Shown piece by piece: positions 6,878-32,814 of a stretch of 64,000 bases of DNA. The notes below the pieces were generated by a model, which saw only the letters and a list, made by a program, of their open reading frames with translations, was not told the DNA's origin and ran no database searches. How positions within the stretch are numbered: the stretch's first letter is position 1; each line of letters starts with the position of its first letter. A program made the translations under genes and the position numbers. The DNA comes from Escherichia coli (GTDB taxonomy: Bacteria; Pseudomonadota; Gammaproteobacteria; Enterobacterales; Enterobacteriaceae). The DNA is taken from assembly GCF_003790525.1 (NCBI RefSeq), contig NZ_CP033635.1, one strand, 5' to 3'.

Positions 6878-6922
6878 ATTCCTGCTATCCTTCGCGGCAG
6901 TTTTTCTTATTGAGGTTGCTTT

Positions 6923-7252
6923 ATGACCACTCATGACCGCGTTCGTTTCCAGTTGCAGGCGCTTGAAGCGTTACTGCGTGAACATCAGCACTGGCGAAAC
7001 GATGAACCCCAGCCGCATCAATTTAATAGTACCCAACCGTTCTTTATGGACACCATGGAACCACTGGAGTGGTTGCAGTGGGTGCTGATCCCGCGAATGC
7101 ACGATTTGTTAGAAAACAACCAGCCGTTACCGGGCGCTTTTGCCGTTGCTCCCTATTATGAAATGGCGCTGGCGACGGACCACCCGCAACGCGCGCTTAT
7201 TCTGGCTGAGCTGGAAAAACTGGATGCTCTTTTTGCGGATGATGCGAGCTAA
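6923..7252 (+). CDS. yqcC: DUF446 protein YqcC
   Basis: 109-aa ORF, stop overlaps truC start; conserved synteny. Confidence 0.8.
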   Translation: MTTHDRVRFQLQALEALLREHQHWRNDEPQPHQFNSTQPFFMDTMEPLEWLQWVLIPRMHDLLENNQPLPGAFAVAPYYEMALATDHPQRALILAELEKLDALFADDAS

Positions 7253-8034
7253 TGCTGGAAATACTCTATCAGGATGAATGGCTGGTTGCGGTAAATAAAC
7301 CCTCCGGCTGGCTGGTTCACCGCAGCTGGCTGGATCGCGACGAGAAAGTAGTGGTCATGCAAACCGTGCGTGACCAGATAGGCCAGCATGTGTTTACTGC
7401 TCATCGTCTGGACCGACCCACTTCTGGTGTGTTGTTGATGGGATTATCCAGCGAGGCCGGACGGCTGCTGGCACAACAGTTTGAACAGCACCAAATCCAG
7501 AAACGTTACCATGCGATTGTGCGCGGCTGGTTGATGGAAGAAGCGGTGCTGGATTATCCACTGGTGGAAGAACTGGACAAAATCGCTGATAAATTTGCCC
7601 GCGAAGATAAAGGCCCGCAGCCAGCAGTGACGCATTATCGCGGTCTGGCGACCGTAGAAATGCCGGTAGCGACCGGACGTTACCCGACCACGCGCTACGG
7701 CCTGGTGGAACTGGAGCCGAAAACCGGACGTAAGCACCAGCTCCGTCGCCATCTTGCCCATTTGCGCCACCCGATTATTGGCGACAGCAAACATGGTGAT
7801 TTACGCCAGAATCGCAGCGGTGCTGAACATTTTGGCCTTCAGCGGTTAATGCTGCATGCCAGTCAGTTGTCATTGACGCATCCTTTTACTGGCGAGCCGC
7901 TGACTATTCACGCGGGCCTGGACGACACCTGGATGCAGGCGTTATCACAATTTGGCTGGCGGGGTCTGCTTCCTGAAAATGAAAGGGTTGAGTTCAGTGC
8001 GCCATCGGGTCAGGATGGAGAGATAAGTTCCTAA
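7252..8034 (+). CDS. truC: tRNA pseudouridine(65) synthase
   Basis: 260-aa ORF with RluA-family HRLDRPTSG catalytic motif. Confidence 0.9.
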
Positions 8035-8051
8035 TCCAGGGAGAAAACGGT

Positions 8052-8501
8052 ATGGCGGAAATTGGTATTTTTGTCGGCACTATGTACGGAAATTCGCTGT
8101 TAGTGGCGGAAGAAGCGGAAGCAATTCTGACCGCGCAGGGCCACAAAGCAACGGTATTTGAAGATCCTGAATTAAGCGACTGGCTGCCCTATCAGGATAA
8201 GTATGTTCTGGTGGTTACGTCCACGACCGGGCAGGGCGACCTTCCTGATTGCATTGTGCCGCTCTTTCAGGGAATTAAAGATACCCTGGGCTTCCAGCCG
8301 AATCTGCGTTATGGCGTGATTGCGCTCGGCGACAGTAGTTATGTGAATTTCTGCAATGGCGGCAAACAGTTCGATACCTTGTTGCAGGAACAGAGCGCTC
8401 AGCGAGTGGGAGAAATGCTGTTGATTGACGCCAGTGAGAACCCGGAACCGGAAACGGAATCAAATCCGTGGGTCGAACATTGGGGCACGCTGTTGTCCTG
8501 A
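8052..8501 (+). CDS. yqcA: flavodoxin-like protein YqcA
   Basis: 149-aa ORF with flavodoxin fold signature (TSTTGQGD). Confidence 0.85.
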
Positions 8502-23078: not shown

Positions 23079-24392
<1,314 letters not shown>

Positions 24393-24433: not shown

Positions 24434-25859
24434 TAATGCCAGTCAGTTAAGCAACTGACTGGCTCTTTTTCGGGGCTGTGGGGTATTTCCAGGGCCTCTC
24501 CTTTACCACTCTCGGGAAGGCCCTTTCCCTTCTTGTCGGTAATTTCACAAGTTGTCCCATACTTGCAAGATCGCGCATCAGCTCCGGTATACGTCCCGGT
24601 GAAGCGCCCTGCAATGTCATCAGCATTCTCATCACCATTCCACATGATTCTGAGAAACTCAGTTGATTCGGCCAGTAACCTTTCAGATATTCCGCCATTT
24701 TAATCATCTGATATCTCACCAGATTATAAGCCAGTAAGACACCCCACAGCTCTTGCTCCACAAGCTCCGGTTTTTTACTTCTCAGCGTCAGCCTGCTCAG
24801 TTGCATCGTCTGTTTTATCTCCCTGTATCCCAGTTCGATTTCCCAGCGATGACTGTACAGATCCGCCATTTCTCCTCCGGGGAAGCGCATGGCGTCCGTC
24901 ATCGACGTCAGCAGATGGCAGACTTTTCCTTTGCGCGTCACGGTCAGCAGGCGGGCTGTCACTTCATTTCCCAGTCCCGGCCACTTTTTTCGTGCCTGCG
25001 GGCTGGTTTTCAGCTTCACCAGATGATCGCCTTTACCCAGTTTTCTGATCTCTTCATATTGCGCTCCCTTTCTGAGAGGTATCATCCAGTGGCGGTGTTC
25101 TCCCGCCAGGCTCCAGGCATTTAACAGTCCCAGTGAGTAATAACCTTTATCCATTAACGTCAGAGTGTTATCGCCGGTTTGTTCTATAAGTTGCTCAGCA
25201 AGCTCATTTTCGCTGTTCTTCATCGTGCCGAAGGCTGCAGCCGTCAGCAGATGGCTGGTCAGTTCCATCTGGCAGACCATTTTGACCTGCGGGTAGAGCG
25301 CCGGGTTCCCGGCATGTGTCTGGCGGGGGAAGGCTGCATCGTTCTCTGGTGTATCCGGTGTGCGCCAGAACACACCATCGATGGCCAGCAGGGTCAGGCC
25401 GCACCAGTGCGGATGCGGCGTGGCGTTATGCCAGAGCTGCGCTGTTTTCGTGAACACGCGGCGGACAGCCTCACTTCCCAGGCGCTGGCGGGCCTGAATA
25501 ACGGCACTGGGGGCAACGAAGGGGCGATTGCCCGGCAGCATGATGTCCAGGCGATTCACAATCTGGTGAAGAGGTTCTTTACGCTCAAGCGCCATGCCAA
25601 CAATACACCAGACCATCATTTCGAGGGGAAGACGGCGCTTGCGTAGCGTTACAGTACCTGATTCGGCAAGGCAACGAGAGATGAGTTCGGGGTCGAGGTA
25701 ATCCCCCAGAGAAGTCAGTGGGTTACGCAGAGAATCGTAACGGGATACCAGATCAAGAGCCTGTCCAATGTGCATAAAAAAATCCGGAAACAAGTGAGCG
25801 TTTCCGGATTCTTACACAGCCACTGGATCGGTCAACTGATCCTTAACTGATCGGCATTA
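24434..25859 (-). mobile_element. IS4 insertion sequence
   Basis: about 1426 bp; terminal imperfect IRs (taatgccagtcagttaag / cttaactgatcggcattac); flanked by direct repeat cagccttcgggctg (13-14 bp); contains DDE transposase. Confidence 0.9.
24447..25775 (-). CDS. insG: IS4 transposase
   Basis: about 442-aa IS4-family DDE transposase ([15 protein letters not shown]...); track start 25793 is a short extension. Confidence 0.9.
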
Positions 25860-25891
25860 CAGCCTTCGGGCTGGCATTTTTTATGGCTGAG

Positions 25892-26764
25892 TTACCAGCG
25901 GCCAGACGCGCCGCCACCGCCAGAAGAACCGCCACCTCCGTTAAATCCGCCGCCAGTTGAGCCGCCACCAGAACCGCCGCTGTCTGAATGATAACTTCTA
26001 CCTGATGCTTTTTTCTGTGGGACACATAACCAGGTAAAGACCATAATGATGGTGAAAGCAAAAAAGAAGGAAAATACAGCAATGGAAAAAGTTTGATCGG
26101 AGAACAGGAATAAATCTATAAGATAGACTGTTGAAATACAAACACTGCTTTTAAATGCCCGACAAAAATTATTGCCTTGATGAAAAAACCAGAAAGGGAA
26201 GAACATCACTGCAAATACCCAAAAAATAGCAAAGTAGTAATGATCACTGGAAGACGCTGATTCACTTTCTGAAGGATTAGACGAATATTGGTGTTGTGAA
26301 GTGAGTTGGTTATTCAAAGCGATTATAGCTAATTCTAATCCCTTAGCTAATTTTTGTTTTTTAAAGGCGGGTATCATGATGCTACGGATGATATTGCCAG
26401 CCAGAGCATCGGTTACCTTTTCTTCCAGCCCATAACCTACCTGGATGCGGACAGTACGATCCGACCAGGCAACAATGATCAGTATCCCATCATTACGTTT
26501 GGCATCTCCTAAACGCCAATTGTCAAAAACTCTTGTAGCATATTGTTCAATAGAATCGTCTCCGGTGGATGGCACTATTAATACAGCGACCTGTGCCCGT
26601 GTTTTTTGTGTAATATCCTGCAGCTGTTGTGTTAGTGATTGTTGTTCAGACGTGCTTAAGGTACCAGTAATATCGGTCACCTGTTGGCGCAGCTCCGGCA
26701 CAGCAATTTGCTGGGCAAGCACAGGAAGGCACCATAAAGTGAGTAGAAAAAGGATTATACGCAT
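25892..26764 (-). CDS. ygcG: TPM-domain membrane protein YgcG
   Basis: 290 aa from MRIILF...; signal peptide, TPM domain, TM segments, C-terminal Gly/Ser tail ending GGGGASGRW. Confidence 0.8.
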
Positions 26765-26769
26765 AACGA

Positions 26770-27918
26770 TCACCAACGGTCGGATGAACCGCCGCCTCCT
26801 GAAGAACCGCCGCCACCGCGGAAAGAATTTTTCGACGAAGAGCGAGAATGAGCATTACGATTCCCCGTTTTCCTGTTGCTTTTTTCTCCTGACCCCAGCT
26901 TAAGATTGCCAGTAAATTTGGCCACAATGATCAGCAGAACGATGCCAGCAATGGTTATTGGGCCGATAAAATGATCAATTAACCCAATAATTGTTGAGAT
27001 GAATGCTATATCTTTATTACTGGCGAATACCAGGCACCATCCCACAACAATTATCAGCAGCACGACAAACAATGAGTTTCGTTCGGATTGAGAAACCTGC
27101 TGAGTCGTCTTTTGTTTTTTCACTTTAGCGTTTTTATTTTTTGGGGCCAGCATCATAGGAAATACGCGATACATATGAAAAATTACCGCGAGACGCTGCC
27201 AGCAGGTTGCTGCGAAAAATAAACTAAAACAAACGAGCGATACCCGCCGAATGATGACATCATCCTGAAAGAAGAAAAACCAGACCATAGGAGTAATCAT
27301 CGATATCATCCATATGCCAGGCCCGGGACGGCTGGTAAATCGCCAGAGGACAACGATGGCAACGATCATCAGTAATGTCCAGGCAAGACATGGCAGCGAG
27401 CGTTGCGGATTAGCAAACAGATGATTGGCTAAAGCATCCAAAGGGCTAAGATTCGCTTTTATATAGGTAAACTGTGCGATGCCTTCAATTCCCTGCGTTA
27501 ACCCGGAGAAGAGATTATTTTTTTTGAATTCCGGTTGCATATGGTAATGAACAATTTGCGCAGCTTGTTCCGGTGGCAGCATCTCTTTCAGTCCATGCCC
27601 AATCTTCATTGACGCCAGCCCTTCCGGCCAAACGACGAGAATTAAGATACCTTCGCCGTACCGCTTCTCTCCAACGGGTTTCCAGTGATATAACCCGTAG
27701 CTCTGAGAGGCTGCAAGTTTAATGTTTTTGCCCCCTGTGGTCGGCGTAACCAACACGGCCACCTGGAAGTGGTTTTGCTGCTCGAGAGTCTGTAATTGTT
27801 GATTTAAAGCAGTTTGTTCTTCTGTCGTTAATGTCCCGGTTAAGTCAGTTACTGAAGGCAATTGTTCAGCGAATGCCTGGAAACCATATAGCATCAGAAG
27901 TAAGAGAAAAATACGCAT
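26770..27918 (-). CDS. TPM-domain membrane protein, divergent paralogue
   Basis: 382 aa; signal peptide, divergent TPM-like domain, several TM segments, Lys-rich linker, C-terminal [15 protein letters not shown]. Confidence 0.7.
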
Positions 27919-27932
27919 TTCAATTCCTTTTG

Positions 27933-28826
27933 TTACCAGCGCCCGGAGGCGCCACCGCCGCCAGATGAACCGCCGCCGCCGCGGAAATTGTCATTGTCGA
28001 ATGAAGAGGATGACGATGACGAATAGTGGGAGGAAGAATTACTTCTTGTATGGCGTGATGGCTGGTTGGTATTACGCATCGAATCCCGAACCTTTTTGCC
28101 GAAGGGAGTAAAAGCGATGGCGACAGCCAGGAACGGTGTGGCGAAGCAGAGTAATGTTGCGAGCACTCCCCAGCTTCCGCTGAAACCTGCTATAGGTAAA
28201 ACAAAGGCCAGTACAATAGCTGCGAAGCAAATCAGTCCCAGCGTTTTGATATATCCTCTGGCAGAAATAAACGTCAGTATTATCGCCCAGACTAACAAAG
28301 CCCACCAACCGCTAAAGGGCAAAGGGTGATCGGTCGGTGTTATCGTTGCTGAATTATTCCCCGTCAGGCGACTTTCAATATCGTTGATCCCCTTTTGTAA
28401 ACCACCAGCCAGGTCGCCTTTTTTAAATGCCGGAATAATACTGTTGCGAATAATTTTCCCGGACTGTACATCCGTAATAATACCTTCCAGTCCGTAACCG
28501 ATTTCAATACGCACGGTATGATCCTGCCAGGCGACTAACAGTAGAACGCCATCATCGCGGTCTTTATCACCCGGTTTCCAGCTATCGAATACCCGCGTTG
28601 CGTACTGCTCGATGGTTTCATCGCCTGTTGTATCAACCACTAACACGACCAACTGTGCGTGGTTTTTTTGCGTCAGGGCTTTAATCTGGTTGGTCAGGGT
28701 GTTTACTTCGCTGTTTGTTAATGTGCCGGTTAAGTCATTCACATACTTGGGGGATTCAGGTACTGGAATTTGTGTGGCAAACACAGATGAACAGAAGAAA
28801 GCCATAAGGAAGATAAAATTTCGCAT
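27933..28826 (-). CDS. TPM-domain membrane protein, close paralogue of YgcG
   Basis: about 297 aa from MRNFIFLMAFF; shares [11 protein letters not shown] and VAW-D-TVRI-GYGLE blocks with ygcG; C-terminal [15 protein letters not shown]. Confidence 0.75.
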   Translation of the reverse strand: MRNFIFLMAFFCSSVFATQIPVPESPKYVNDLTGTLTNSEVNTLTNQIKALTQKNHAQLVVLVVDTTGDETIEQYATRVFDSWKPGDKDRDDGVLLLVAWQDHTVRIEIGYGLEGIITDVQSGKIIRNSIIPAFKKGDLAGGLQKGINDIESRLTGNNSATITPTDHPLPFSGWWALLVWAIILTFISARGYIKTLGLICFAAIVLAFVLPIAGFSGSWGVLATLLCFATPFLAVAIAFTPFGKKVRDSMRNTNQPSRHTRSNSSSHYSSSSSSSFDNDNFRGGGGSSGGGGASGRW

Positions 28827-28839
28827 AGAACTTCCCCGC

Positions 28840-29442
28840 TTAATGCGCATTAGCATTCTGGCTAAAATCTATTGTTGGGGCTTTACTTACTGCGGTGACA
28901 TCATCCGGCAAATAATTTTTCTTTGGTGTGTAATCCATGACCTTTGCGGTTAATACAGCGGGGAATTTGCGGATAGTGACATTATATTGTTCAATGGCTT
29001 TAATATATCTTCCTCGCGCAACGGCAATTCTATTTTCACTTCCTTCGAGCTGTACCATTAAGTTTTGATAGAGTTCCTGAGCTTTTAACTCAGGGTAACG
29101 TTCACTAATTATCGTTAACTGACCGAGAGTGCGAGACACCTGCGCCTGGGCTTGTTGCCAGGCTTGTAATTTTTGCGCATCTCCCGGAGCTTGCTGAAGA
29201 TCGCTACTGGCGCGATTAGCCTGGCTACGTGCCAATGTTACGGCTTCCAGTACCTCTTGTTCATGGCTAGAATAACCTTTAATACTGGCGACAAGATTAG
29301 GAATAAGATCGGCGCGACGTTGATATTGATTCAATACCTCAGACCAGGAGGCGTTAACCTGCTCATCATAGGTTTGAATATCGTTATATCCACAGCCTGA
29401 TAAATTGACAATAAATATAATTACGATGAATATCCTGAGCAT
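28840..29442 (-). CDS. lemA: LemA-family lipoprotein
   Basis: 200 aa; lipobox LSGC at N-terminus; LemA proteins typically sit next to TPM-domain genes. Confidence 0.75.
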   Translation of the reverse strand: MLRIFIVIIFIVNLSGCGYNDIQTYDEQVNASWSEVLNQYQRRADLIPNLVASIKGYSSHEQEVLEAVTLARSQANRASSDLQQAPGDAQKLQAWQQAQAQVSRTLGQLTIISERYPELKAQELYQNLMVQLEGSENRIAVARGRYIKAIEQYNVTIRKFPAVLTAKVMDYTPKKNYLPDDVTAVSKAPTIDFSQNANAH

Positions 29443-29614: not shown

Positions 29615-30286
29615 ATGCAGTACCCGATTAACGAGATGTTCCAGACCCTGCAAGGTGAGGGTTACTTTACCGGCGTCCCCGCCATTTTTATTCGTTTACA
29701 GGGATGCCCGGTTGGCTGTGCCTGGTGCGACACCAAACACACCTGGGAAAAGCTTGAGGATCGGGAAGTCTCCCTTTTCAGCATTCTGGCGAAGACCAAA
29801 GAGAGTGATAAGTGGGGGGCGGCGAGCAGTGAAGATTTGCTGGCTGTCATTGGTCGGCAGGGATATACCGCGCGGCATGTGGTGATTACGGGTGGTGAGC
29901 CTTGCATTCATGATTTGCTGCCACTGACTGACCTGCTCGAAAAGAACGGTTTTAGCTGCCAGATCGAAACCAGCGGTACTCATGAAGTACGCTGCACGCC
30001 GAATACCTGGGTTACCGTATCGCCAAAGCTGAACATGCGCGGCGGCTATGAAGTGTTGTCACAGGCACTGGAGCGAGCCAACGAAATCAAGCATCCAGTG
30101 GGACGCGTACGTGATATTGAAGCACTGGATGAACTACTGGCAACGCTGACCGATGATAAACCGCGAGTCATTGCACTCCAGCCGATTAGCCAAAAGGATG
30201 ATGCCACACGTTTGTGCATTGAAACCTGCATTGCGCGTAATTGGCGTTTGTCGATGCAAACACATAAATATCTAAATATTGCCTGA
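29615..30286 (+). CDS. queE: 7-carboxy-7-deazaguanine synthase (radical SAM)
   Basis: 223 aa with CxxxCxxC-like radical-SAM Cys cluster (GCPVGCAWCDT). Confidence 0.9.
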   Translation: MQYPINEMFQTLQGEGYFTGVPAIFIRLQGCPVGCAWCDTKHTWEKLEDREVSLFSILAKTKESDKWGAASSEDLLAVIGRQGYTARHVVITGGEPCIHDLLPLTDLLEKNGFSCQIETSGTHEVRCTPNTWVTVSPKLNMRGGYEVLSQALERANEIKHPVGRVRDIEALDELLATLTDDKPRVIALQPISQKDDATRLCIETCIARNWRLSMQTHKYLNIA

Positions 30287-30371: not shown

Positions 30372-31379
30372 TTATCGGTAGCGTTTTTGTAGACTGGCAG
30401 GAAGATAACGCTGTAATGGGGATGGCGTTTCACCTTCAATCAGTTGCGAAATAAGTTCAAAGCAGTGAAAAGCAAGTTGGCGATTATCCTGTTGTATTGT
30501 GTCGATTCTTACCGAAAGTGAATCATACAAGTAATGATCATCAAAACTCGCCAGGTGGATTTTACTGTCGAGTAAATTATATTGGCTCATATAGCGCAGA
30601 ACGCCTTCCAGTAATCCACAAGCGGCAGTGAATAAGGCTTTAGGGGGACGTCCTAAACGAGCGCATAGCGCGGCAAACATTTCATAGCCTGAGCTCGGAT
30701 GATAATTACCGTGAATAATCCATTCAGGTTGTAGCGTTACTCCGGCTTGCTGCAAGCCTTGTGTAAATCCTTCCAGTCGATCGCGAGTCGGTGACAAACG
30801 GGGTTGTCCGCCCAGAAAATAGAATTCATCCGGGTGACTCCGTGCAATATCTGCCACCAGAGCGGCGGTGGGAGAAACAGAGTCAGTAATGACCAATGGC
30901 AATGTGCTGCCGTTCATGTGGCGATCGAACAACACAACAGGTAATTGCTCGCTAAGTTTTTGATAGTCATTATCATGCAGCATACTGGATGCGACGATTA
31001 ACCCATCAACCTGGCGGGCAATCATATTGTTCACCACCATTGTTTCCTGTGAAGGATTTTCATCAGTACAGGATATGAGGAGTTGGACTCCCGCTTCCCG
31101 ACACAATGTTTCCAGTTCATGGGAAAATACTGCAAATCCGTAGTTAGTGATTTCAGGAACGACGAGACCAATGGTGTGACTGCGGTTGTCCCGTAATGAG
31201 CGGGCATGAATGCTGGGCTGATAATGCTGCTGTTGGGCAATACTCAGCACACGCTCACGCGTTTCCTGCGCAACACGTAACTCTTTGCCACGACCATTGA
31301 GAACCAGACTGGCGGTTGCTTTCGACACTCCCGCCAGTTCAGCAATGTCTTTAATAGTAACGCGTTTGGTTTTTCTCAC
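30372..31379 (-). CDS. scrR: LacI-family sucrose operon repressor
   Basis: 335 aa; N-terminal HTH ([22 protein letters not shown]) plus periplasmic-binding-like fold; last gene of the scr cluster. Confidence 0.8.
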
Positions 31380-31404
31380 GACGAGGATCCGTAATTCAAA
31401 ACCC

Positions 31405-32814
31405 TCATTCTACCATGCAGGCGCGTAGCGACCAGTAGTGTAACGTGACGTCAGACTCGCCCTGTAATATCAGCGAAGCTGGATGATGGGGAAAATAACG
31501 ATTGCTCATTACGCCTTCGCCATTATTGATGAATATCTCTATGCTGGAACTGTCACAGAGAATCTTCAGTGACGTTACGCTTCCTCGCCAGTAACGAGTT
31601 AGTTTCTCTTGCCCTGCAAGGCTTTTCCTCTGTAGTTGAATACCATCGTCATTAAGATGCAGTGCCAGTGCGTTGCCAAAATTCAGATGTAGCTCGCCTG
31701 ATGGAATGATGTCCATTTCCAGACGTTCAATTGCGACAGGCGGCGCATGATCCGCTTTTCCTTGCCAGAAGTGTTCAGCTTCACGCAGTTGCGCGAGTTC
31801 CCTGATTGGCATCTGAAATAATTTTCCCTTCTGGAATGAGAGTTCGCGAAAACAGGTCATTTGATGCTGCCAATGATGCTTTCTGGTTGGTTGCAACATC
31901 TCTTCGCCATCAGGAACCCCCATCCAGCCGACCAGTAATCGTCGCCCGTCCGGGGCTTCCATCGTCTGTGGTGCATAGAATTCAAATCCCGCATCCAGCT
32001 CTGAGAAAGCGCCATGCGTAAATTTGCCTGTCTCGTAATCAAACTGTCCATGTAGCCAGGCGCAGGGATAGGTATTCAGATAGCGCTCATGTTCGCGCGC
32101 CATTCCCTGGGGGCAGCAGAGGAGAATGTATTCACCATCAAGGGCGAAAAGATCAGGACATTCCCACATGTATCCTGCGTTATCAATTTCATTCAGACCA
32201 TTACCAGCAATTTCTCCATGAAAAGACCAGGTATAGAGATCGACAGAGGAATACAGCAGCACTTTCCCCCGTTTCTCTTTATCTTGCGCGCCAAGCACCA
32301 TGTACCATCGGCTGTTGTGCTTCCAGACTTTTGGATCACGAACATGTCCGGTGTAACCATCAGGTAACGGTATGACAGGGCCTAATTTATCAAACCCGCC
32401 CTGGTTATTTTCGGTGGCCAGACATTGCCATGCCGTTCTGCTGCCATCATCAAACTTAACATTACCGGTATAGCAAAGTGTGAGAACGCCCTGATTATTA
32501 ACCGCGCTTCCTGAGTAACAACCATTACGGTCATACTCTTTATCGGGCATTAGCGCTAATGGTTCATGCTGCCAGTGCAATAAATCCGTCGAACTCCAGT
32601 GCCCCCAACATTTGTACTTATGATTACAATCCAATGGATTCCACTGATAAAACAGATGATAGCGGCCTCCTGACCAGCAAAAGCCATTTGGATCGTTCAT
32701 TAGTCCGGTGACGGGAGCGAGATGCCAACAAGGATAGTGGGCATCTGCCTGTGCTTTGGACTGACCTTTCATCACTGCCTGTAAAATCGCGGGCATTTGT
32801 GAAGGCATCGACAT
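31405..32814 (-). CDS. scrB: sucrose-6-phosphate hydrolase (GH32 invertase)
   Basis: 469 aa with GH32 NDPNG catalytic motif. Confidence 0.85.

Follow-up and report, generated by a model that had tools for sequence, protein, structure and literature searches.

A fast-evolving YgcG-class TPM paralogue with a lineage-specific predicted membrane module at the lemA-ygcG locus of Escherichia coli

The function of TPM domains has been described as lacking consensus in a preprint on Chlamydomonas LMTP1 (10.1101/2024.10.28.620569). The metal sites proposed for TLP18.3, BA42 and LMTP1 differ from one another, and only LMTP1 (9H70) and 7TBR share a site, built from an Asp, a Leu carbonyl and a Glu of the first loop and helix and binding Mg or Mn (10.1101/2024.10.28.620569). 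Assignment of TPM domains as phosphatases has been argued to be unlikely in two papers of a single group, the role proposed being to help the assembly of membrane-linked complexes (PMC11237479; 10.1101/2025.01.14.632903). Their enzymatic activity is low in vitro and disputed (10.1101/2025.01.14.632903; 10.1101/2025.05.08.652833), and BA41 has been reported as an ATPase/ADPase in work known here through its citation in PMC11237479. A preprint on Psb32 bound to photosystem II (PSII) places the TPM domain on the lumenal face and the C-terminal membrane helix at the position of PsbY (10.1101/2025.05.08.652833). Operons of LemA and YgcG-type TPM proteins are widespread in bacteria, and E. coli K-12 retains a single remnant gene, ygcG. 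Here we analyse a four-gene form of this locus, lemA-TPM1-TPM2-TPM3(ygcG), which lies on the minus strand between eno and queE in a 64,000-nucleotide stretch of E. coli DNA (the window) that is 100% identical to the chromosome of strain SMS-3-5 (NC_010498.1). The subject is the middle gene, TPM2.

Our analysis suggests that TPM2 arose as a duplicate of the YgcG class, is functional and evolves fast, and has specialised as a subunit, probably without enzymatic activity, in a LemA/YgcG complex of the inner membrane; we hold this reading with about even confidence. The gene starts with ATG, preceded by an AAGGA Shine-Dalgarno sequence 7-8 nucleotides upstream, and is annotated as intact in RefSeq (WP_001217997.1). 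Its product of 382 amino acids is 75-92 residues longer than TPM3 (290-294) and TPM1 (297-307), close to the 90 residues estimated in the preliminary description of this DNA, whose coordinates for the gene are exact and whose Lys-rich string and C-terminal tail are both present. BLASTP relates TPM2 to the YgcG type at 1e-20 versus E=0.001 or no match for the short TPM class, and on these values TPM2 was rejected as an orthologue of the short TPM protein that comes second in canonical operons.

The TPM domain of TPM2 is predicted to be complete. It matches Pfam PF04536 at 79.1 bits (cut-off 22.1; E=3.7e-22) over profile positions 1-124 of 125. In an AlphaFold model built from 55 sequences, strands at residues 23-25, 52-58, 90-96 and 101-106 and helices at 32-49, 66-76, 116-132 and 136-155 follow one another in the full order beta-alpha-beta-alpha-beta-beta-alpha-alpha, with a predicted local distance difference test score (pLDDT) of 80-89. 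The predicted fold is the alpha/beta/alpha sandwich of TPM domains, a four-stranded sheet flanked by helices. Foldseek aligns it with BA41 (5ANP), Rhom172_1776 (7TBR), PG0361 (2KW7), TLP18.3 (3PTJ), Psb32 (8C7I) and BA42; the target-normalised template-modelling score (TM-score) is 0.68-0.84 for stand-alone TPM-domain chains, and for 5ANP, 7TBR, 2KW7 and 3PTJ it is 0.69-0.84 at a root-mean-square deviation of 2.4-3.2 Å. With an end-to-end Pfam match, every fold element predicted and a TM-score of up to 0.84, the claim that TPM2 keeps only the outline of the TPM fold goes too far.

The strong divergence claimed for the middle gene holds at the level of sequence. TPM-domain identity is 52% between TPM1 and TPM3, 39% between TPM2 and TPM3 and 34% between TPM2 and TPM1. 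Mean identity to 39 YgcG-family proteins of many phyla amounts to 33% for TPM2, 48% for TPM1 and 44% for TPM3, and a neighbour-joining tree places TPM2 on a long stem branch (0.72) as the sister of TPM3. Forty columns are conserved in at least 80% of YgcG-family members. TPM2 keeps 26 of them (65%), as compared with 88% each for TPM1 and TPM3 and a leave-one-out family mean of 91 ± 8% (minimum 69%). In the conserved residues of its TPM domain (26/40) TPM2 departs from the YgcG pattern, and it is the outlier both of the three paralogues and of the family as a whole. The likeness of the other two paralogues had been overstated as long identical blocks, since the identical runs between TPM1 and TPM3 reach at most 10 amino acids, plus a Gly tail of 15.

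The losses are concentrated at charged or invariant positions and are common to all Escherichia orthologues. They comprise E64K, E67K, Q68L, Y69A and R72Q in helix 2; D88G and D89E before strand 3 and A96V within it; D99E, R100G, R103S and E105K around strand 4; G112E after the GxG turn; and D116P and R121Q at helix 3, the former at its start. A96 and D116 are invariant in the family, and R72, R103, E105 and G112 are at least 90% conserved. Position 116 is Asp in 41 of 41 family members and Pro in TPM2. The residues retained are the V23-T-D25-L-T-G-x-L30...E33/E34 motif together with Q52, W79, G90, G107, G109, L110 and F131.

Downstream of the TPM domain, hydropathy gives five hydrophobic segments in TPM2 (about residues 175-191, 201-217, 221-237, 283-299 and 317-333) versus three in TPM1 and TPM3. 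AlphaFold agrees, with helices at 171-194, 200-216, 221-256, 277-300 and 320-336 and a short one at 302-317 in TPM2 (pLDDT 50-70), and at 174-189, 194-212 and 218-238 in TPM1. The additional hydrophobic segments, the basic Lys-rich stretch and the retained C-terminal tail that had been noticed in the middle gene are thus all present; from F366 onward the tail aligns with invariant columns of the YgcG family. Basic clusters occupy alternate loops, namely RFTSR after helix 1, the loop region 240-281 (nine K+R against one D+E) and the tail (nine K+R), the other loops being acidic or neutral. The Sec-type signal peptide appears in the model as an N-terminal hydrophobic helix (residues 2-15). Because of this cleavable signal peptide, the odd number of helices and the positive-inside rule, the TPM domain would be periplasmic and the Lys-rich loop and Gly-rich tail cytoplasmic, as in the three-helix paralogues. 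Helix parity counted by hydropathy across the family adds weak support to this topology, the counter being crude and returning 2 or 3 for most members. In the TPM1 model, residues 292-296 (about 27936-27950, ...ASGRW) form a beta-strand with a pLDDT of about 87; the tail of TPM2 (26773-26823) is below 40. If the tail docks on a TPM domain, either the topology or the partner, for instance the short TPM protein that canonical operons encode without a signal peptide, would need rethinking.

The membrane module appears to be proper to this lineage. No Pfam or NCBIfam family covers it. Searching 1.84 billion representative proteins with a profile of the module gave 10 matches, which are Escherichia TPM2, the Klebsiella-type protein described below and frameshifted fragments of these, and no remote relative outside the Escherichia and Klebsiella types. 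Among 100,044 species genomes, the module was found in three species, E. albertii, E. whittamii and Klebsiella spallanzanii; the E. coli representative genome gave none. Derivation from a TPM1-like module plus an insertion was rejected at the level of detectable similarity (hhalign probability 0.14%), and an internal duplication relating helices 1-3 to helices 4-5 was rejected as BLASTP returned no alignment.

Full-length relatives of TPM2 (79-89% identity) were found only in Escherichia, below which the score drops from about 650 bits to 95 bits for the next match. The E. coli gene lies on the chromosome, practically always as a single copy, with two places recorded in no more than 2 genomes, and falls into two main allele groups, one at least 99% and the other about 93.5% identical to the query. 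Of 5426 complete genomes, 1114 carry it; the four-gene form is thus carried by about a fifth of them, including O157:H7, O55:H7, O145, 536 and SMS-3-5, and the genomes that lack TPM2 retain ygcG alone. K. spallanzanii and two Klebsiella-like metagenomic contigs have a syntenic gene (queE-lemA-TPM-middle...eno) for a protein of 265-270 amino acids. This protein shares with TPM2 the signal peptide, the start of the TPM motif (e.g. ISDLTSTLAAAEQ) and the tail, and it has a longer Lys-rich loop and a membrane module 29-30% identical to that of TPM2. It is without the residues equivalent to about 38-157, that is, the TPM core, through an in-frame deletion. The linker of TPM2 holds a 10-residue segment that is kept in the Klebsiella orthologues, and L163, A164, H166 and L167 are invariant in the orthologue alignment. 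The Lys-rich loop of E. albertii and Klebsiella keeps its composition and not its sequence.

Selection was assessed by the ratio of non-synonymous to synonymous substitution (dN/dS) after Nei and Gojobori, with P from a one-sided binomial test against neutrality. The whole TPM2 gene has a dN/dS of 0.27-0.32 (P 8e-6 to 4e-10), its TPM domain 0.16-0.23 (P 2e-4 to 6e-10), its membrane part 0.41-0.59 (P 0.05 to 0.01) and its Lys-rich loop 0.56-0.78. The values for neighbouring genes are 0.03-0.11 (lemA), 0.17-0.23 (TPM1) and below 0.02 (queE). Three TPM-less Klebsiella alleles, 74-78% identical with a dS of 0.32-0.38, give 0.30-0.36 (P about 1e-7 to 1e-6). With significant purifying selection at a dN/dS of about 0.3 in both, neither the Escherichia nor the Klebsiella form is a pseudogene, as judged from the substitution pattern, and TPM2 is evolving faster than its partners.

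These data bear directly on the alternative that TPM2 is a redundant duplicate drifting to loss under relaxed selection, with its divergence and unusual membrane region both forms of decay. Several observations agree with such drift. The dN/dS of TPM2 is the highest among the genes compared with true orthologues, the locus is accessory (1114/5426 complete genomes, the rest keeping ygcG alone), several E. albertii alleles have lost the C-terminal Trp, the TPM core has been deleted in Klebsiella, and the membrane module has no detectable relatives elsewhere. However, the open reading frame (ORF) counts as full length, with query coverage of at least 80%, in 1102 of the 1114 carrier genomes and is intact in alleles of E. 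coli, E. albertii and E. whittamii that are 6-20% diverged at the protein level. Non-synonymous changes are under-represented, with P down to 4e-10, the TPM-less Klebsiella form is itself open at a dN/dS of about 0.3 over three alleles, and the substitutions at conserved sites are fixed in all orthologues, not scattered. Decay is a distinctly unlikely account.

Alternatively, TPM2 could still be an enzyme or a metal-binding protein, such as an acid phosphatase or an ATPase/ADPase (cf. TLP18.3 and BA41), with an altered substrate or metal preference and an incidental membrane module. The fold is complete, and D25, L30 and E33 or E34 of the retained N-terminal motif align with VTDLADLLTPAEE of 7TBR, the Asp and Leu at the Mg/Mn-binding positions of 7TBR and LMTP1 and the Glu at neighbouring positions. 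The TPM domain is also under the strongest purifying selection within the gene, and BA41, the closest solved relative, has the same layout of TPM domain, membrane helix and Gly tail and is the protein whose ATPase/ADPase activity is cited. Nevertheless, without coordinates the Glu ligand could sit at Asp+9 or at Asp+10, D116, R103 and E105 are replaced, TPM activity is low in vitro and disputed without agreed catalytic residues, and the Klebsiella orthologues do without the TPM domain and are still conserved. TPM1 and TPM3 carry the same Asp, Leu and Glu, so that the site does not distinguish TPM2. On this evidence we consider an enzymatic TPM2 unlikely.

The same observations qualify the suggestion made for the middle gene, that it may have lost catalytic function and serve a structural or regulatory role. 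Near-invariant residues have been lost (D116P, R103S, E105K), but the N-terminal Asp/Leu/Glu motif is retained. A loss of catalysis cannot be asserted for TPM2, since it presupposes a catalytic site, and the literature neither defines one nor agrees on catalytic residues for the family; what the alignment does indicate is a loss of family-conserved, putatively surface-exposed residues. The Klebsiella orthologues, which are under purifying selection in spite of lacking the TPM core, fit a role for which a working TPM domain is not needed; in Escherichia, however, the TPM domain is the most constrained part of the gene and no dead relic.

The membrane module may also have an activity of its own, as a small channel, in lipid or ion handling, or as a partner or receptor in conflict with phages or colicins, the TPM domain being a periplasmic appendage. 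Conservation of the module without the TPM core in Klebsiella, its narrow distribution and the raised dN/dS of the membrane part and Lys-rich loop (0.4-0.8) are in line with this, as is the nucleotide divergence of about 6% within the species at the locus. Between the TPM2 genes of SMS-3-5 and E. albertii (locus L005, 5001-6146), dS is 0.45 in the TPM-domain half and 0.13 in the membrane half, a contrast that suggests recombination or exchange within the gene. On the other side, the PADLOC defence models gave zero matches for lemA, TPM1, TPM2 and TPM3, on which ground membership of the locus in a defence system was rejected. No Pfam or NCBIfam family lies over the module, conserved charged or polar residues typical of pores were not identified, dN/dS nowhere exceeds 1, and the locus is chromosomal and syntenic from queE to eno, not on mobile elements. 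An independent activity of this kind is very unlikely.

A related, unlikely possibility is that the working unit is the lineage-specific five-helix module with its poly-Lys loop and Gly tail, which would form a new small membrane-protein family of Escherichia and a few Klebsiella. A YgcG duplicate would have swapped its membrane part and would now be shedding the TPM domain, remodelled in Escherichia and deleted in Klebsiella. If so, a domain protein has been caught turning into a different membrane protein, which might act as a membrane organiser or gate of the LemA/YgcG system and no longer as a TPM protein.

In our preferred reading, specialisation as a probably non-enzymatic subunit, a YgcG-class duplicate would have kept its fold, periplasmic location and cytoplasmic tail, rewritten the conserved face of its TPM domain, and acquired its own five-helix module with the poly-Lys cytoplasmic loop. 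TPM2 would form a membrane complex with TPM1, TPM3 and the LemA lipoprotein. Psb32, MOLO-1 and the mycobacterial supercomplex subunit suggest by analogy that TPM domains may serve membrane complexes in an accessory or assembly capacity, with the membrane helices choosing the partner. What is specific to TPM2 would then lie mainly in the five-helix module, basic loop and tail, since TPM-protein helices dock in partner complexes and Klebsiella keeps the module and tail. Being the more constrained half, the TPM domain presumably still does something in Escherichia; it may have drifted to a modified, auxiliary binding role, possibly with a different periplasmic partner.

Several points weigh against this proposal. 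The LemA/YgcG complex with TPM2 is deduced from operon structure only. The membrane helices are predictions from hydropathy and a medium-confidence AlphaFold model (pLDDT 50-70). The membrane module that is meant to carry the function is, in Escherichia, less constrained than the TPM domain. The dN/dS of about 0.3 is 3-10 times that of lemA, and about 80% of complete E. coli genomes lack TPM2. Moreover, 6 of 11 TPM2 clusters (P0004, P0005, P0007, P0011, P0014 and P0015; five from E. albertii) end in ...GR, ...DR or ...RR and have lost the C-terminal Trp, a position occupied by Trp or Tyr in all 41 other family members. The high dN/dS, the frequent absence and the loss of Trp fit a weak or conditional function.

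The four genes were treated as a single operon because they overlap or are separated by gaps of only 14 and 5 nucleotides and because no internal signal rises above chance. Promoter-like and terminator-like pattern matches within them did not exceed the shuffle expectation, so internal promoters or terminators splitting the operon were rejected. The order lemA-TPM-middle-TPM recurs in E. albertii and one Klebsiella-like contig, and lemA heads the operon here as well as in E. albertii, K. spallanzanii, Methylocaldum and Leptospira. The N-terminus of LemA reads as a lipoprotein signal (MLRIFIVIIFIVNLSG|CGY) that is conserved in Klebsiella, for which reason LemA here is probably a periplasm-facing lipoprotein, not an N-terminally anchored membrane protein. 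The positions of the genes, of the parts of TPM2 and of other features are given in Table 1.

Table 1. Features of the four-gene locus, parts of TPM2 and features of compared loci
Feature	Locus	Position	Strand	TPM2 residues	Basis or remark
eno	window	23094-24392	+		flanking gene
queE	window	29615-30286	+		flanking gene
lemA	window	28840-29442	-		first operon gene; Pfam PF04011 E=1e-48; lipoprotein signal IVNLSG|C read from sequence
lemA	L004	4537-5127			lipoprotein signal
TPM1, upstream YgcG-class paralogue	window	27933-28856	-		297 amino acids from ATG at 28826; 3 predicted membrane helices
TPM1 span annotated in RefSeq	window	28155-28826			labelled pseudogene
TPM2, middle YgcG-class TPM gene	window	26770-27918	-	1-382	382 amino acids + stop; Pfam PF04536 E=3.7e-22
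TPM3, ygcG-type downstream paralogue	window	25892-26776	-		290 amino acids from ATG at 26764; 3 predicted membrane helices
TPM2 signal peptide	window	27868-27918	-	1-17	A-x-A type site, AFA|EQ, read from sequence
TPM2 TPM domain, predicted periplasmic	window	27469-27858	-	~21-150	Pfam residues 23-149, AlphaFold, Foldseek
TPM2 linker and juxtamembrane helix	window	27400-27468	-	151-173	helix 159-169 in model
TPM2 membrane helices 1-3	window	27151-27399	-	174-241	helical extension to 256; hydropathy, AlphaFold
TPM2 Lys-rich loop, predicted cytoplasmic	window	27076-27150	-	257-281	composition, pLDDT <50
Lys-rich string within the loop	window	27097-27147	-	258-274	
TPM2 membrane helices 4-5	window	26914-27075	-	282-335	short helix 302-317 between; hydropathy, AlphaFold
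TPM2 basic Ser-rich tail, predicted cytoplasmic	window	26773-26913	-	336-382	9 K+R; pLDDT <40
Gly-rich C-terminal string	window		-	368-382	aligns with invariant family columns
IS4 element	window	24447-25860			transposase 24447-25793
Hairpin	window	25860-25873			adjoins IS4 end
Sucrose genes	window	30372-32814 onward			beyond queE
Third-gene copy	L002	3033-3935			compared with TPM3
Third-gene copy	L003	4033-4905			compared with TPM3
Third-gene copy	L005	6146-7063			E. albertii locus
129-amino-acid hydrophobic protein	L013	6738-7127			Klebsiella-like contig
129-amino-acid hydrophobic protein	L014	1756-2145			Klebsiella-like contig
CRISPR array	L004	about 6900-8400			
CRISPR array	L002	7787-8059			
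CRISPR array	L003	6210-6971			
Short TPM gene	L007	5840-6349			Methylocaldum
Short TPM gene	L009	5892-6452			Leptospira

In SMS-3-5, RefSeq labels TPM1 a pseudogene with a missing C-terminus and annotates only part of it. This is probably an annotation artefact, since the ORF is open over 297 amino acids (27933-28826, minus strand) and its product is 95-96% identical to intact E. coli proteins. The third gene is a mosaic between strains. The SMS-3-5 copy (25892-26764) is of the K-12 ygcG type, with 79% amino acid identity and a near-identical membrane region, and the N-terminal 60 amino acids of the K-12-type ygcG are different. To the third genes of O145 and E. albertii the SMS-3-5 copy is about 53% identical, and their membrane region differs. 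In E. albertii (L005) the stop of TPM2 overlaps the start of the next gene, and in the two Klebsiella-like contigs a hydrophobic protein without a Pfam match is encoded after the third TPM gene.

An IS4 element, not present at the other E. coli loci examined, lies between eno and the operon and ends about 31 bp beyond the TPM3 stop, next to a hairpin. Arrays of clustered regularly interspaced short palindromic repeats (CRISPR) flank the locus elsewhere. In K. spallanzanii the array sits where the third TPM gene would be, and in E. coli O145 and WP5-S18 it lies past queE. Beyond queE, SMS-3-5 carries genes for a LacI-family regulator, a sucrose-6-phosphate hydrolase and a sucrose phosphotransferase-system transporter, in place of which the other E. 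coli loci examined have a CRISPR array and ygcE.

The best lead to the function of the LemA/YgcG system is maintenance of the envelope or membrane under stress. Sigma-S RNA polymerase binds the K-12 intergenic region between queE and ygcG, and the same source lists ygcG under envelope or oxidative stress (PMC4447067). A point mutation in a YgcG-family gene was found in a study of the evolution of halotolerance, in which the function of the family is stated to be unknown (PMC10091555). In Flavobacterium columnare, losing signal peptide peptidase A, a membrane perturbation, induces lemA and a TPM gene (PMC13236525). A literature search for the LemA-TPM system retrieved mostly noise and no paper on the operon, and searching the O157 locus tags gave nothing.

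What makes TPM2 valuable is the access it offers to an uncharacterised envelope system, and not any surprise of its own. The four-gene locus of E. coli amounts to a natural dissection, with two conventional copies, one rewritten copy and a Klebsiella counterpart without the TPM core. The residues given up by TPM2 (D116, R103, E105, R72 and D89) are candidates for the functional site of the family, and the TPM-less orthologue offers a ready test of whether the membrane module and tail suffice.

Among known systems, the YgcG family (COG1512, PF04536; K-12 YgcG and BA41, 5ANP) is the nearest. TPM2 shares with it the signal peptide, the predicted periplasmic TPM domain, the membrane helices, the adjacency to lemA and the layout of the C-terminal motif F-x-GGGG-S-x-GGGG-A-S-G-x-W, the tail of TPM2 reading SSDRW, not ASGRW. 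Its architecture is of the COG1512 type, and BA41 is its best structural match, with a TM-score of 0.81-0.84. TPM2 differs in having five helices where one to three are usual, in a module without detectable similarity to that of TPM1, and in keeping only 65% of the family-conserved domain columns, D116P, R103S and E105K being among the losses. In the canonical lemA-ygcG-type TPM-short TPM operons of Methylocaldum (L007) and Leptospira (L009), the YgcG-type gene shares the N-terminal motif and the Gly tail. The short TPM proteins of these operons have 169-186 amino acids, no signal peptide or membrane helices, and 39% mutual identity; Escherichia is without an equivalent and has three YgcG-type copies instead.

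Psb32 and TLP18.3 (8C7I, 3PTJ) resemble TPM2 in an extracytoplasmic, lumenal TPM domain tethered by a C-terminal membrane helix, with a TM-score of 0.73-0.74 for TLP18.3, and both are PSII assembly and repair factors, accessory to a membrane complex in which the Psb32 helix docks (10.1101/2025.05.08.652833). They differ in a single membrane helix, in lacking the Gly-rich tail and a lemA partner, and in an identity to TPM2 of only 10-16%. The NCBIfam Psb32 model NF047379 (cut-off 160 bits) does not match TPM2 and scores 33 bits for TPM1 and 37 bits for TPM3. The TPM subunit of the mycobacterial respiratory III2-IV2 supercomplex (8OVC, 6ADQ, 6HWH, 8HCR) illustrates the TPM fold as a structural accessory subunit in an inner-membrane complex. 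Its relation to TPM2 is one of fold only (E=1e-4 to 4e-3, 14-18% identity), while architecture and context differ. TPM2 is also comparable to pseudoenzyme subunits in its preserved fold, its replaced invariant polar residues and its purifying selection beside conventional paralogues. However, the parent TPM family has no established catalytic activity, so the label of pseudoenzyme cannot be asserted for TPM2. The advance is modest, useful more than surprising: TPM2 belongs to a known, uncharacterised family, from which it is set apart by its lineage-specific membrane module and the loss of conserved TPM-domain residues.

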